Origin: Cladosporium halotolerans
Lineage: Eukaryota
DNA length: 64,000 bases
Reading direction: 5' to 3'
Assembly: GCF_011745625.1 (NCBI RefSeq)
Contig: NW_027191452.1
Span: 434,001-498,000, forward strand
Under the pieces are notes generated by a model, which had not been told where the DNA came from, ran no database searches, and saw nothing but the letters and a program-made list of their open reading frames with translations. Shown piece after piece: positions 8,762 through 14,600 of the stretch. The position numbers were made by a program, and so were the translations under genes. Positions within the stretch are counted from its first letter, which is position 1. Every line of letters begins with the position of its first letter.

Positions 8762-9847
8762 ATGAACGTCAAGATGGTCGGCCTCTCAACACACAAGGAA
8801 GTGGCGACTTTCGATTGGAAAGCCGCAGCGACCAACGCCGAATATTCCACCAACGCTCTCCCGGCAAACGAACCGGGATTCATAATCTACGATGAGTCCT
8901 TCAAGAAAATCATAGGCGACAGCCCAGAACTCGAGTTCGTCGAAGTCCGCGACGACAAGTTCGCCCACGAAGCCGGTGTGTACATCCAAAGTACCGACCG
9001 CAACTACTTCACCTCCAACTACCAATCCAACAAGTCCGTCGAAGTCTACTCCGTCGATACCACGCACCACAAAACCGAGCAACACTCCTTCCCCGCCGTC
9101 AAAAACCCCAACGGCGGCTGCTGGTACCAGGAACAAATCCTCTTCTGCTCCCAAGGCGACCTCACGCACCCCTCCGCTCTCGTCCTCGTCGACCCTCAGA
9201 CCGCAGCCTCCACGACCCTAATAAATAACTTCCACGGCCGCCCCTTCAACAGCGTCAACGACGTCGTGATCCACCACCCCAACGATGACATCTGGTTCAC
9301 GGACCCGACGTACGGCTACGAGCAGGCCTTCCGGCAGTCGCCCCAGCTGCCGAGCCAGATCTACCGCTTCAAGCCTTCGACGGGCCAGATCTGGTGCGTC
9401 GCGGACGGCTTCGTGCAGTGCAACGGCCTCTGCTTCAGCCCGGACTACAAGAAGCTGTACGTGACCGACACAGGCGCGGTGCAAGCGCACGGCACGCCGG
9501 GGAATGGGCAGAATTTCTCGCTGAACCCAAGGCTGCCGAGCTCGATTTACGAGTTTGATGTTGTGGATGGCGGGACGAGGTTGGCGAACAGAAAGTTCTT
9601 CGCGTATTGTTCCAGTGGTGTGCCGGATGGGATCAAGTGTGATGAGGAGGGGAATGTGTACTCGGGCTGCGGGGATGGGATCCACGTCTGGAATCGTGAG
9701 GGGCTCCTCATCGGCAAGATATTCGTGGGCAGTGTTGTGGCGAACTTCAACTTCGCTCGAGGAGGTGTGTGGACGATGGCGCAGGAGAAACTGCTTTTTG
9801 CTAGGATCAAGGCGAGGGGCGCATTGGCGAGTATTGAGGGCCATTGA
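8762..9847 (+). CDS. SMP-30/gluconolactonase/LRE family beta-propeller lactonase
   Basis: 361-aa ORF with FAHEAGVY, FNSVNDVV, IWFTDPTYG, NGLCFSPD..KLYVTDTG and PDGIKCD..GNVY. Confidence 0.9.
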   Translation: MNVKMVGLSTHKEVATFDWKAAATNAEYSTNALPANEPGFIIYDESFKKIIGDSPELEFVEVRDDKFAHEAGVYIQSTDRNYFTSNYQSNKSVEVYSVDTTHHKTEQHSFPAVKNPNGGCWYQEQILFCSQGDLTHPSALVLVDPQTAASTTLINNFHGRPFNSVNDVVIHHPNDDIWFTDPTYGYEQAFRQSPQLPSQIYRFKPSTGQIWCVADGFVQCNGLCFSPDYKKLYVTDTGAVQAHGTPGNGQNFSLNPRLPSSIYEFDVVDGGTRLANRKFFAYCSSGVPDGIKCDEEGNVYSGCGDGIHVWNREGLLIGKIFVGSVVANFNFARGGVWTMAQEKLLFARIKARGALASIEGH

Positions 9848-10034
9848 AAGCGGATTGCCGAAACATGGTATGAGTCGATGATGGAAATTTTAGCATTGCG
9901 AATCGGAAAAGAAAAGTCATTGTTTTCATTGGAACTATCACCCTCATCTCAAGCAATCCCAATCGGGATGCGATTTCGAAACCTGCCGTCCCTCATTCAC
10001 CAATACCTGCCGCCCTGCATATTCAACGCGTACC

Positions 10035-11080
10035 TCAGCAGCACGGGAACTTGTCATCGAGTAGACAGTGACGTCCATGGATCCCAGGAAGGAAGCCGCA
10101 GAAATCGCAGCTCCAGTAAATGCACCACCCAGTCGTGAGACACTGGGCGCCCGCACAGTCCGGGAGCAACTGCCTGCGCACAGCCAAGGTCAGCGAGGAC
10201 AACATCTACTTCGGCGGCATTCTGAAGCTGAGATCATGGCAGGTCCGGACGAAGTAGCGGTGGAGGTGGTAGCAAGAATCGCCTGGGCAGCCGATATTGG
10301 CACAGTTGGCGTTCTTGCGGCAATGCTTGCCCTGGCAGGCGGCGGGCATGTCTCCGTTCTTGATGAGCATAGTGTCGCTGTTCCAGTATTACAGTTAGTA
10401 AGGGGTCTCACCTTATGGTTTGTCCATATGGCAGTAACGAGCGGGCAAATCCTGATATAGAATGCAAGCATCACACTGGAGGAGCCAGCAAGTGAAACTT
10501 GTGTCGCAGGGCTTCGTCGCCTGCAATACGTACCTGTTCTCGAGGGACTTCTTGACCTCGTGAGCCTCGTTGACACTTGTATCCTCGCGCCAGTTGGTAT
10601 TATCCGGGTCGATGGCAGGGCGGAGCTGAGTTGGCGGATTGAAGATCTGCTCATGGTCCTTGACCGCGAAGCCGCTGACGTTGGCGAAGAGCTCATTGAG
10701 GTGCTCCTTGTCAGCCTCGAGAGAGCTGGGGAGGTTCTTGACCATCTTCAGGAGCTGCGCGTTGGAGAGAGGTGCGAAGTCGATGACTGCACCGTTGGCT
10801 AGGGAAGATGTCAGCACGGTCGTGTCAAAGAGCTTAGGCAAAATTGACTGACCTGAGTAGGAACGAGCGATACCATCGTCAGCGATGTGGACAAAGCCCT
10901 CAGGGTCAAGGTTCATGGCCTTAACAGACTGAGCGCCAGCCGGATTGGTCTGCAAATATTAGGTCAGTCCTTTGTTGTTGATAGTTTACAGGCTTCACTC
11001 ACTGGAGCAGACCCAGTGGAGATGGCGAAGATCGCCAGAACGAGGCCGATGGCCAGCTTGAAGAGTAAGTCGTGCTGCAT
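10035..11080 (-). CDS. Secreted pre-pro-protein with three alternative Cys-rich C-terminal peptide modules (effector/antimicrobial-peptide-like)
   Basis: Exon 1 11080-11003 (signal peptide), intron 11002-10950, exon 2 10949-10853, intron 10852-10799, exon 3 10798-10534 ending AAC AG before a GTACGT donor. Terminal modules: A 10533-10413 (read-through), B 10377-10206, C 10173-10035. Confidence 0.8.
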
Positions 11081-11646
11081 GGTTGCGAGCAGTAGTGGAA
11101 GTCTGATGTTCGGATTGTGTGAGAGGATGAGGTGTGCTGTTGTTGGTCGATGGTGAGAGAGAGAGAAAGAGATAAGGTAGTGGTGCGTGTTGAGGCTGTT
11201 TGTTAGCTGACGTGAAAGGAGGAAGGAAGGAAGGGAGGAAGGACAGGCCGCAAGCTGCGGTTGCGCCTTCCTTTTGATGCCACCAACAACACAACACCAA
11301 AGCGTCAACACGCTTTCACGAGCTGAGAGAGCGATGGCCTAGCACGTGATTGTTCCTGCAGCGTATAGGTCCTCAGTAAAGGCTGAAGTGTAATCCCTAC
11401 GATGGGCCTTTGATCGAGAAGAAAATAATGTCCATCATTATGCACTACTTATCAATTAACAATCCGGGAATCCCTTCTATCGGTGAAGTAGCATTTGTCT
11501 CACAACGGCCTAAACCCCGATTGCCATTTAACAGGACTCGGCACAAAAGCGAACACTTTTCTAATCGGACACGGCATGGCATTGCGCACAACACGGCGTT
11601 GACCTCATCATCCAAGTATTTGAGGACATACTTGGTTTAGGCATGC

Positions 11647-14600
11647 TCAATACGCGCGGCCACTTGACGTACGGCCGACGGTGAGGAAGGTCTCCACCTG
11701 GCCAGAGATGGCGAGTCTATCATTCGGGTCGACACCCATGGTCTGTGACTCAAAGTCAGTCTCACATTAGGTCAGTCAATGGAAGGGGCATTACTTACGT
11801 TCAAGTTATTGAATCCACTGAAATAGAAGCCGACCACGAAGACGAGGTAAGTCAGGATGAGCGAGCTGCCCTTGAAGTAGTTGCTCTTGCCCTCGCCGAC
11901 AACGTAGCCCATCAAGAACACGCCCAGAATGACAGTCACCATGTCCCATTGCGGGAAGATCAGAGTGAAGGCATGGTCGGCGTAGTCCGCGGGACTGATG
12001 AACTGGCCGTAGATCGCGGTAAAGAGCACAATGGCGGGGATCTGGAGAAGCATGACCTGCAAAGCATACGAATTGCCGATCTCCATGGAAAGCGCGATGT
12101 TTCCGTTCATGGCGAAAGATATGGCGTTCAGGAATTCAGTGGTGTTGGGGACGAGCGCAAAGAGTGTGATTCCTAGGAACTTCTCGTCGATGTCAACATT
12201 GCTGAGCACCGAGTCGACCGTGTCCACCAGAATCTCCGCGATGATTGCGTAGGCGACAGTGGCGGAAAGCAGAATGACGGCAGATTTCGTGCGCGACCAG
12301 TTGGGCGCATCGTGCCCTCCGGATGCTTGTTCGTGCGTGCCAGTAGCCACGACGGCAGCATTAGCAGCTGCAATCTCGCCAGCGGGTGCGGTAACCTCTC
12401 CAATACTGCTTGCTTCCATGTTCGCAGTGCGGAGGGACTGATTTTCATCTCTCTCCCGGCTATGTGAATCTTTCGCGATAGATCCATGTCTATGGCTGGC
12501 AGCGCGGGTAATAGCCATGTGCGCTGTCTTCTGGGGAGCTTTAGTCGCATCTCTCGTTGCCACAGCTGCAGCGGTAGCCGCCATTTCAGCGACCTGCTGA
12601 ACAAGTGCACGGTTGTCTTCGGCGCTGAGGCCCTGAATGCGGCCAGTCTTGACGCTACCGTTTTCACCATCGGCTGATTTCGGCGGGACAATGTGGTGAG
12701 TTTGGCCGTCAGTCTTGGGGACGGCATCCTCGCCATCGATCTTCTTCCCGGCCTTGGCGTTGATTCCAGCTTGTCTCAAGCTCTGGTTGAGAATCCGTTG
12801 GTACATCTGACTCTCTCTGATGTTGGTTTGTGAGACACTGCCGGAGGTCAAATTCCTAGCCATGTGATCACGCGGCTGATCAGTGTGAACAGGGCCAGAG
12901 ACACTGGCGTGACGTTCTTCAATGCGCTGGGCTTGTTGCTCCATCTTGGCCTCTTTCTTCTCGTCGGACTCGTTGTTCCAAATCACAGCGGCATGTGTCC
13001 GCAAGGTGAATAGTAGGCCGATGATGTAGCTGAGGAACAGCAACACAGCGGCGAACCAAGTGTACGGTCGGACTGCCTCAATGTAAAACTTCGTTTGTAC
13101 AGCAGGTGTCTGCGAGAAGTAGCAGCGCCGGCAGTCAGTGTCGGGTCCGTGAGTACCGTTACGGACGCAATTGTGGCAGTTCAGTTCGTGAGAGCCGTAA
13201 ATTTGATAGAAAAGCGTCGGACCGAAAGCGCCAATGACCGCAAACAACAACATCGTGTTAGTGGCACTAGCACTACGGACGTTGAAGCGTTGCGTTTTGC
13301 GTTTGAGAGCACCAAAGCACATACTGAGGCCGGGCAGGAAGAGAATACCCGCAAAGATCGAGCCGACGACACTGCCCTCGACTAGCTGACCCTTGCCTTG
13401 AGACAGTGCAACGCAGTACAAGTAGACTTCGACCACGGTACTGAAGAAAGCATTGGTAGTGGCACCAACACCCATCGAAGACTGAGCAGAGATGGAAGCT
13501 ACAGCCTGGCCGATGAAGTAAGCAAGTGGAATGATCGAAAAAAGGCCGAGAACGAAGTTGAACCCAGGAGACGTGAACCAGTTTTCGATGTGCAGAGTCT
13601 CGAAGAGTACAAAGTAGTTGAAGATTGTGAACGCAACAAGCCCGAGCATGTTGATGAGGAAAATGTTGGTTCCATCAATGGTATATTTCCAGTATTTTGA
13701 TCCCACGGCGCGGTATGTGCACATTAGGATGCTGTGCGAGTTGGCGCTTGGTGAGGATCGCGAATAATGAGTGTCCGAATGGAAGCTCAAGGCTAGTGGA
13801 TGGCGACGAAGATGGTGGAATAACAGGAGTGTCACCTTGCCCATGGGAATGGTAAATACGAGGAACCAGCAGATGGCGCTCACGAAGAAGAGACAGGGCG
13901 TGACCAGGAAGTAGAACGTCATGAAGAAGATGACACGTCCGACATCCCATTTGCCGCGGCCAAAAAGTCGCTTCTTTATCCTGTTCTCTGCGCGTTGATT
14001 CGCACCGTTGCGGTCGTGTCTGCCAAGCAGGCTGTCAGTCTCATTGGGCAGGTCTTCGACTTCTTCGCGACGGCGACCAATGAGTGAGCGATTTCCTTCT
14101 TGTGGGCCGAAGAACAGGCGACCTTCCTCAAGGTCGCCGGTCTGCCAGCGCTCGTACTCCCCAACGCTGCGACCTTCGCCTTCGTCTTCGTCAAGGTAGG
14201 CCTCATCGTGCTCCAGCTTGACAAACTTGCCAAAGGGATAGAAGAGGTAGGACGACAAATTCATTAAAACGCGACCATACTCTCGACATCCCTCAGCCTG
14301 AAGGAGACCGAATATATGGCAAAGGACGCCACCGAATGCAGCGACTAGAGCCAGCCACCATCCAAAGATAATCGTCCACAGGAGATTGAAAATAGAGAGC
14401 CAACGGCTGACTCTGCCGCCGGGTGCTGAGTGGATATCGCTTTCGGCGTTGCGCTGCACCGATCGATTCTTTTTGTACAAGGCGGGTTTCCAGATGCGGA
14501 TACCGAAGGGATGCGTTTCGTTGATCGCTTCTTGACGATCCCGGAGAGTAAAACTTTCCGCATCGCTCAAGTCTGGGTCGTCCTCGTCCTCGTCTTCCGT

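Follow-up and report, generated by a model that had tools for sequence, protein, structure and literature searches.

Organisation of the locus

Contig NW_027191452.1 of Cladosporium halotolerans was analysed over a 64-kb stretch (positions 434,001 to 498,000 of the forward strand; hereafter the window, with all positions counted from its first letter), and on the minus strand of this window, at 11080–10035, lies a small intron-containing gene of fungal type. It is formed of a three-exon constant part, encoding a hydrophobic N-terminus that resembles a signal peptide (as judged by eye from the translation) and a pro-domain, followed by three Cys-rich modules, A, B and C, which are candidates for alternative ends of one secreted precursor (Table 1). 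A previous interpretation made from the letters of this DNA alone (the sequence-only reading) had proposed this arrangement, and the GTACGT donor, the limits of the three modules, TACTAAC, GCTGAC, the CAGs and the stops were all found as it described them. It had also placed B and C outside the track of open reading frames (ORFs), which was incorrect, as ATG-initiated ORFs of 54 and 56 aa are present.

The end of exon 3 translates as K-K-S-L-E-N and leaves AG as the first two bases of the next codon, with the donor GTACGT occupying the following six bases (10533–10528). Reading through this donor leads directly into A, which also makes up the 5' portion of intron 3 (10533–10378). The acceptors ahead of B and C are both in phase 2 with the donor at 10534, as the sequence-only reading had stated, and splicing in silico gave open frames for constant+B and constant+C as well as for unspliced constant+A, with the Arg retained at the junction to C. 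All three modules share one genomic frame, and between B and C there is only one stop, a TAG, followed by an open spacer with Arg-Arg at its end.

Several smaller features surround these junctions. The hexamer GAACAG terminates both exon 3 (10539–10534) and intron 3 (10383–10378), so the splice joint is ambiguous by 6 bases. Donor-like motifs, GTGAGA (10412–10407) and GTACGC (10033–10028), lie one base past the stops of A and C, respectively, and the context after the C stop (GAG/GTACG) resembles that of the real donor (CAG/GTACG, 10536–10529), which may be a trace of the duplication unit. A 34-nt GTGAGA...CAG stretch past the A stop was considered as an intron and rejected, as the stop of A precedes it. 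Upstream of the gene, a pyrimidine-rich CT repeat at 11212–11250, ~130–170 nt from the ATG, is possibly a core-promoter CT box; it was passed over as a repeat when contigs were placed on the window.

Table 1. Features of the gene and its neighbours, with positions in the window.
Feature	Positions	Strand	Description
Exon 1	11003..11080	-	ATG at 11080 and hydrophobic signal-peptide-like N-terminus, 26 codons; from spliced translation
Intron 1	11002-10950	-	53 nt, GTGAGT...CTGAC...CAG; sequence and gene model
Exon 2	10853..10949	-	Start of pro-domain (DPEGFVHIADDGIARSYS); conserved in family consensus
Intron 2	10799..10852	-	54 nt, GTCAGT...CTGAC...TAG; contig joints in X1 and X2
Exon 3	10534..10798	-	Remaining pro-domain, disordered linker, L-E-N + AG (first two bases of processing-site codon)
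Module A	10413..10533	-	Read if donor GTACGT is unused: Arg + 39-aa peptide, 5 Cys, TAA 10415-10413
Non-coding 3' end of intron 3	10378..10412	-	Branch site TACTAAC 10400-10394, acceptor CAG 10380-10378
Module B	10206..10377	-	Spliced terminal exon: junction codon Ser + 56-aa tail, 6 Cys, TAG 10208-10206
B-C spacer	10174..10205	-	Open in B/C frame (MLSSLTLAVRR); GCTGAC 10194-10189, acceptor-like CAG 10176-10174
Module C	10035..10173	-	45-aa peptide, 8 Cys, A-type C-x2-C loop, CC at end, TGA 10037-10035
Neighbour gene	8762-9847	+	Convergent SMP-30/gluconolactonase/LRE-like (SGL) protein
Neighbour gene, upstream	11772-14264	-	Na/Ca-exchanger-domain membrane protein

Homology of the three modules

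The six reading frames of the window contain three matches to the pattern C-x5-C-x4-C-x(2-4)-C-x(10-11)-C, which all fall within this locus and agree in strand and frame, while 200 block-shuffles gave four matches in total and none to the full six-Cys version carried by B and C. The sequence-only reading had assigned one shared Cys framework to the three modules, with a further N-terminal C-x4 in B and C, and the full six-Cys version is found in B and C but not in A, which has five Cys here, with Gln in place of the first Cys of the family framework. Loop lengths are 4, 5, 4, 2 and 10 in C and in orthologous A modules, and 4, 5, 4, 4 and 10 in B, where the fourth loop is C-x4-C. The pattern of the wider family described below, C-x(3-6)-C-x(4-7)-C-x(3-5)-C-x2-C-x(7-13)-C, is matched by C, whereas A lacks the first Cys and B has x4 in loop 4.

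Against an independent profile, made from the modules of 58 distant family members, A scored 21.7 bits, B 14.8 and C 13.6, and a three-frame scan with the profile of distant members found just these modules, all in one frame. Furthermore, tblastn with the C-terminal module of the distant member P0018 matched C at 10175–10071 (E=5e-4). On these profile scores A, B and C are true homologues, derived from tandem duplication of the Cys-rich end as had been proposed, and not a chance pattern. The opposite view, that the resemblance is due to chance or low complexity and that there is no real multi-module locus, could appeal to modules that are short and very different beyond their Cys and a few other residues, and to a shuffle z-score of 1.5 for C against B, yet it is refuted by the framework statistics, the single-frame profile matches, the P0018 match and the existence of B orthologues, and we give it virtually no credence. 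The three modules are alone in the window, as tblastn with eight family proteins detected no further paralogues there, and Pfam gave nothing over cut-off for the read-through ORF or for A, B or C.

The wider family

We searched a library of 1.84 billion proteins with a profile of exon 3 and A, which identified 103 family representatives at E<=1e-3, 23 at <=1e-10 and 4 at <=1e-30. Members of full length begin with a segment resembling a signal peptide, followed by the shared pro-domain, a linker that varies, a site of the form LEGR, LDKR, LDER or LENR, and one six-Cys A-type module. The consensus of the pro-domain is G..H..DDGV.RSY...G.VIDY..LSN.QL ... VDG..V.D..Q...P..L.P, which the window gene matches. 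Of 105 family proteins, 63 end in a single A-type module, while none has a B-type module and none has two modules. Because the family ends in a single A-type module with no B-type, these comparisons indicate that A is its ancestral, canonical payload, and that B is an innovation of the clade with R-Y-V after the site (the translation of AG/GTAYGT). Pfam analysis of 15 family members gave none at cut-off and only sub-threshold noise.

Cys loss is seen in A modules of the RYV clade, with five Cys in the window and in P0001, and three to five in P0007, P0016 and P0026. In these last three the frame and a conserved F-C-Y-S-D tail are kept, and they could represent independent decay or a payload variant with fewer disulfides.

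Predicted structure

The read-through ORF (167 aa) was modelled by AF2 with a 108-sequence alignment, giving a mean pLDDT of 79 and a pTM of 0.73. In this model the pro-domain is formed of strands and helices (pLDDT 90–97), the linker at residues 106–131 is disordered (pLDDT <50), and A is a short helix followed by a hairpin (pLDDT 76–92). No solved relative of the pro-domain and A model was found, either with Foldseek at E<=0.001 or in an exhaustive VIA search, where no chain reached Z>=2. Module C, modelled alone by AF2 with a 67-row family alignment (pLDDT 80.6), showed the same helix-hairpin order as A. While Foldseek gave no match to the C model at E<=0.001 (the top non-significant rows being CS-alpha-beta scorpion toxins at E 3.4–4.5), a VIA search returned 19 of 48161 chains at Z 2.0–3.3, the best at Z 3.3 with a root-mean-square deviation of 2.2 over 35 aligned residues. 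These were mostly knottin-type mini-proteins, including a tomato cystine-knot peptide, spider and scorpion inhibitor cystine knot (ICK) toxins, and carboxypeptidase and trypsin inhibitors, with a few plant defensins.

The model of C is therefore compatible with a cystine-knot-like fold, at Z values too low to establish it. The loop lengths of the six-Cys modules (4, 5, 4, 2 or 4, and 10–11) also fall inside the knottin/ICK consensus, and the CS-alpha-beta defensin motif (C-x3-C of the helix paired with C-x-C of the last strand) is in none of A, B and C. The sequence-only reading had suggested knottin- or defensin-like peptides, a label that is plausible, though not established.

Orthologous loci

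A word-indexed protein search detected two relatives only, P0001 (95% identical) and P0002 (53% identical, with all six Cys), both of which are read-through ORFs with module A. A metagenome scan gave four loci, L001–L004, at 48–51% identity. The downstream convergent SGL gene is syntenic in L002 and L004, and this common neighbour shows that they are orthologous to the window locus; these two loci also have the same exon 1 and the same position of the intron after it.

In L002, L003 and L004, L-x-x-(AG) closes the exon, and after it come GTATGT, an in-frame A with its stop at the same place, a branch site, a CAG and an in-phase B, the intron ahead of B (GTATGT...CAG) being 149–151 nt. Both A and B are open in these loci and all Cys are kept, and the multi-module homologous loci that the sequence-only reading had suggested looking for thus exist at ~50% identity for A and B, with C not among them. 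The site before A is L-E-N-R in the window, L-D-E-R in L002, L-G-E-R in L004 and L-D-K-R in L003, and B has a basic site of its own in all three loci (K-R in L002 and L004, L-S-P-R in L003).

Orthologous A modules in L001–L004, P0002–P0004 and P0006 have an open frame, six Cys, the same stop position and an invariant C-terminal stretch, and a six-Cys orthologous A is present in P0008 too. Although synonymous sites have reached saturation when the window is compared with L002, the A frame, its stop position and its Cys positions are kept, which is hard to reconcile with A as a mere intron. B-type ORFs were found in three further sequences, P0106–P0108, and that of P0106, a close relative, ends at the same position as the TAG in the window.

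The B modules of the orthologues carry an additional 52-nt phase-1 intron after C-H (L002 4687–4738, L004 4685–4736, L003 759–810), followed by a short last exon. The window lacks this intron, with C-H-D-L-S-F-R contiguous at 10230–10225, which indicates intron loss or gain between lineages.

RNA-derived contigs

Contigs from four runs (X1, X2, X6 and X8) were placed on the window at 90% likeness; they indicate presence and not absence, and their depths cannot rank isoforms. Stretches at 10136–10217 in X2 and 10372–10527 in X6 are without contig cover, and no absence can be inferred there. The joint of intron 2 (10798/10853, skip 54, CT..AC ends) was carried by a single X1 contig (side 255) and by a single X2 contig (side 28), which implies that both runs hold RNA-derived sequence. 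One X2 contig covers exactly 10534–10800, which is exon 3, and another ends precisely at the exon 1 edge, 11003, with 11 further letters unplaced. For intron 1, no contig joint is listed for any run, and the intron is kept in X1 and X8 contigs.

The junction from 10534 to 10377 that would bring in B, which the sequence-only reading had predicted, was found in one X2 contig (skip 156, GT..AG on the gene strand), where the shorter side is 24 letters, 6 of them ambiguous. The unspliced form it had also predicted is represented by a 964-letter X1 contig, in which intron 2 is removed and the sequence passes through the donor into A as far as 10447; this contig also keeps intron 1 and extends >100 letters upstream of 11350. 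Nothing on the splicing of the modules could be read from X8 or X6. The region of C is covered in X2 (9941–10135) and in X6 (10044–10230), where the cover extends unbroken into the end of B.

Contigs of X8 (1813 letters) and X1 (the 964-letter contig) run from intron 1 or exon 1 upstream past 11350, towards the 3' end of the upstream gene. Transcriptional read-through, an extended 5' leader or the presence of DNA in the libraries could account for this.

An X6 contig spans 10101–10230 ungapped, with its sole listed change at 10186, and bears on whether B and C form a single tail. In such a reading, B and C would be one frame broken by the TAG at 10208–10206, which is either read through or a recent nonsense change, giving a two-module tail from which C would be released by a Kex2-like protease at A-V-R-R. 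Besides the ungapped contig, this agrees with a genomic frame that has a single stop between the two modules and with an in-frame spacer that ends in RR immediately ahead of C. It is contradicted by retention of the TAG in the window, in P0106 and in the X6 contig, and by the lack of two-module proteins among the 105 family members, and no signal for read-through of the stop is evident, though no test aimed at one was made. A 36-nt GTAGAT...CAG stretch would join B and C in frame, but its donor is poor and its branch site lies ~20 nt from that donor, a distance too short for a spliceosomal intron; we rejected this mini-intron on its length, donor quality and branch-to-donor distance. We regard a B-C fusion as very improbable.

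Proposed mechanism

We propose that A and B are swapped as payloads of one carrier by splicing at a donor within an Arg codon, with C most likely a third payload reached from the same donor, and we assign this reading a probability of roughly 0.55. Within it, A/B payload swapping is well supported, whereas C as a third alternative exon is unproven. We take the gene to belong to a family of secreted pre-pro-peptides, in which a signal peptide and a folded pro-domain of ~100 aa precede a disordered linker, a Kex2-type L-x-x-R site and a six-Cys peptide of ~35–40 aa, and in the clade of the window the payload-coding end was duplicated in tandem. A strong 5' splice site, AG/GTAYGT, lies inside the codon of the processing-site Arg, and such a position would give a constant carrier with an exchangeable payload. 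If the donor is unused, translation would continue into A, keeping L-E-N-R and yielding payload A. Splicing to the TACTAAC/CAG acceptor would remove A as a 156-nt intron, change the site to L-E-N-S and bring in payload B. Finally, splicing to the GCTGAC/CAG acceptor, over a 360-nt intron, would restore L-E-N-R and bring in payload C, presumably a third copy that arose in the lineage of the window and is intact, with its own branch site and an acceptor in the right phase.

The constant carrier and variable payload of the sequence-only reading thereby holds for A and B, on the basis of their layout, the B joint, the RNA that reads through into A and the orthologues, while no joint to C was seen in the four runs. 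That reading had overlooked the ancestral status of A in the wider family, its degraded look in this lineage and the lone in-frame TAG between B and C. We infer that the A and B products are both made as proteins and processed by a Kex2-like protease, and the same status applies to translation, secretion and cleavage in general and to the use of C.

Sequence change and the status of module A

A different account of the locus is that of an exon replacement that is nearly complete. Here B would be the sole functional end, A an ordinary constitutive intron that has not yet acquired stops, and C untranslated sequence in the 3' untranslated region of the B mRNA, with the RNA into A being unspliced precursor. 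Comparison of the contigs with the window gives some weight to this account as regards A. In module A, the X2 sequence differs by three changes, all three non-synonymous, at first positions and matching P0001, whereas B (10218–10383) shows no change; in module C, the X6 sequence differs by three changes, all three synonymous and at third positions, with one non-synonymous change in B. These counts are tiny (three each in A and C) and some contigs are below depth 5, but they suggest that A evolves under relaxed or diversifying selection and that C is constrained as a coding sequence. Together with the loss of one of its six Cys, A seems to be decaying in the lineage of the window, and consistent with this it is only 35% identical to the A of L002, compared with 52% for B and 56% for the constant part. 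The A modules with three to five Cys in P0007, P0016 and P0026, all of the RYV clade, fit this as well, as do the retention of intron 1 in the X1 contig that reads into A, the unbroken X6 cover from the end of B into C, and the lack of a C joint among the contigs.

Much of the orthologue data runs the other way. A is open, with the same stop, six Cys and an invariant C-terminal stretch, in the eight loci and proteins L001–L004, P0002–P0004 and P0006, and true introns differ at 29% of sites between L002 and L003 while synonymous sites are saturated between the window and L002, divergence at which a neutral intron would not stay open and Cys-complete. The exclusively synonymous changes in C, and the proper in-phase branch site and acceptor that precede it, likewise do not suit untranslated sequence. 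We consider a nearly completed replacement possible but on balance unlikely.

Payload swapping from the Arg-codon donor also has to be set against a number of observations that weigh on it. The B joint stems from one contig of one run, with its 24-letter shorter side at 90% likeness, and joints of this kind need caution. That X1 and X2 are RNA is a guess, and X2 further contains contigs that run unspliced over intron 2 and over A, which means that DNA or pre-mRNA is present; the X1 contig into A may be incompletely processed or 5'-extended RNA, as the intron 1 it retains would close the frame early. The 10534 to 10173 joint expected for C in the sequence-only reading was in none of the contigs of the four runs, and a three-frame profile scan of L002, L003 and L004 found A and B alone with no third module. 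No relatives of the C ORF (56 aa; lengths 30–98 searched) were detected, which carries little weight as small ORFs are rarely called, and a protein search over 91–293 aa gave no spliced constant+B or constant+C protein. In addition, B in the window has no LxxR or KR site of its own, and the odd Cys number of A and its three non-synonymous changes of three also fit a plain intron. Lastly, the ratios of non-synonymous to synonymous substitution rates (dN/dS) between L002 and L003 (constant part 0.36, A 0.48, B 0.41), which otherwise count in favour of the swap, are estimates from 40–58 codons and individually not significant.

A stronger form of payload swapping would make all three modules genuine payloads, A by retention and B and C by two acceptors, with A and C freed by a Kex2-like protease and B either left attached or processed otherwise. 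We find this version doubtful.

Comparison with known systems

In animals, calcitonin and calcitonin gene-related peptide (CGRP) precursors join a common signal and pro-region to alternative downstream exons, by splicing or by choice of 3' end. The arrangement proposed here would resemble them in having one pro-region and alternative mature peptides, but would differ in that the payloads are paralogues from tandem duplication, the first is a retained intron, the donor lies in the codon of the cleavage site and the host is a fungus. To our knowledge, functional alternative splicing of this payload-switching kind has rarely been documented in fungi. The modules resemble knottins in their six Cys and loop lengths, with no match to a sequence family and, in the model of C, a short helix ahead of the hairpin.

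Where exons duplicated in tandem are used alternatively or in a mutually exclusive way (PMC9013439), adjacent homologous exons share a phase and one of them is expected in the mature mRNA. A, B and C are likewise adjacent, homologous and of the same phase; unlike such exons, they are terminal modules that contain stops and not internal cassettes, one of the options is intron retention, and exclusive use is seen for B only.

Fungal secreted effectors with a Kex2-processed pro-domain (K2PP; PMC8528282) resemble this gene in precursor layout, sharing with it a signal peptide (putative here), an N-terminal pro-domain, L-x-x-R and a small Cys-rich mature part. The extended Kex2 motif given there is LxxR, with cleavage after the Arg, and a chaperone role has been proposed for K2PP pro-domains (Outram et al., PLoS Pathog 2021; PMC8528282). 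A KR/RR or LxxR site between pro-domain and mature part is present in predicted isoforms A and C (L-E-N-R), while in isoform B the Arg becomes Ser. The pro-domains of K2PP candidates are described as short and prone to disorder, without secondary structure (PMC8528282), whereas that of this gene is long, conserved over 103 representative clusters and mostly modelled as folded (pLDDT >90). K2PP effectors with alternative mature domains do not feature in the available text of PMC8528282. Full-text literature searches, judged by titles and abstracts, turned up no fungal gene described as having alternative Cys-rich ends after one shared pro-domain.

Implications for the family

The family is unstudied: it comprises 103 representative clusters, lacks a Pfam model, and its pro-domain has no structural match. 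Annotation that allows one model per gene would list a single payload and overlook the rest. In filamentous fungi, alternative splicing consists mainly of intron retention and is frequently dismissed as noise. In this gene it is the retained 'intron' that codes for the ancestral mature peptide, and when it is spliced out a paralogous peptide takes its place, a layout that is kept at ~50% identity. The locus also presents a terminal coding exon caught in the course of replacement by its own duplicate, with intact, decaying and newly added copies in different lineages. It offers a concrete example, open to testing, of splicing as a source of diversity among secreted disulfide-rich peptides, possibly antimicrobials or effectors. 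If all three modules do serve as payloads, the gene would be a fungal counterpart of calcitonin/CGRP-type peptide switching, and duplicating the payload in tandem after a conserved, chaperone-like pro-domain would give the family a general means of diversifying its secreted peptides.

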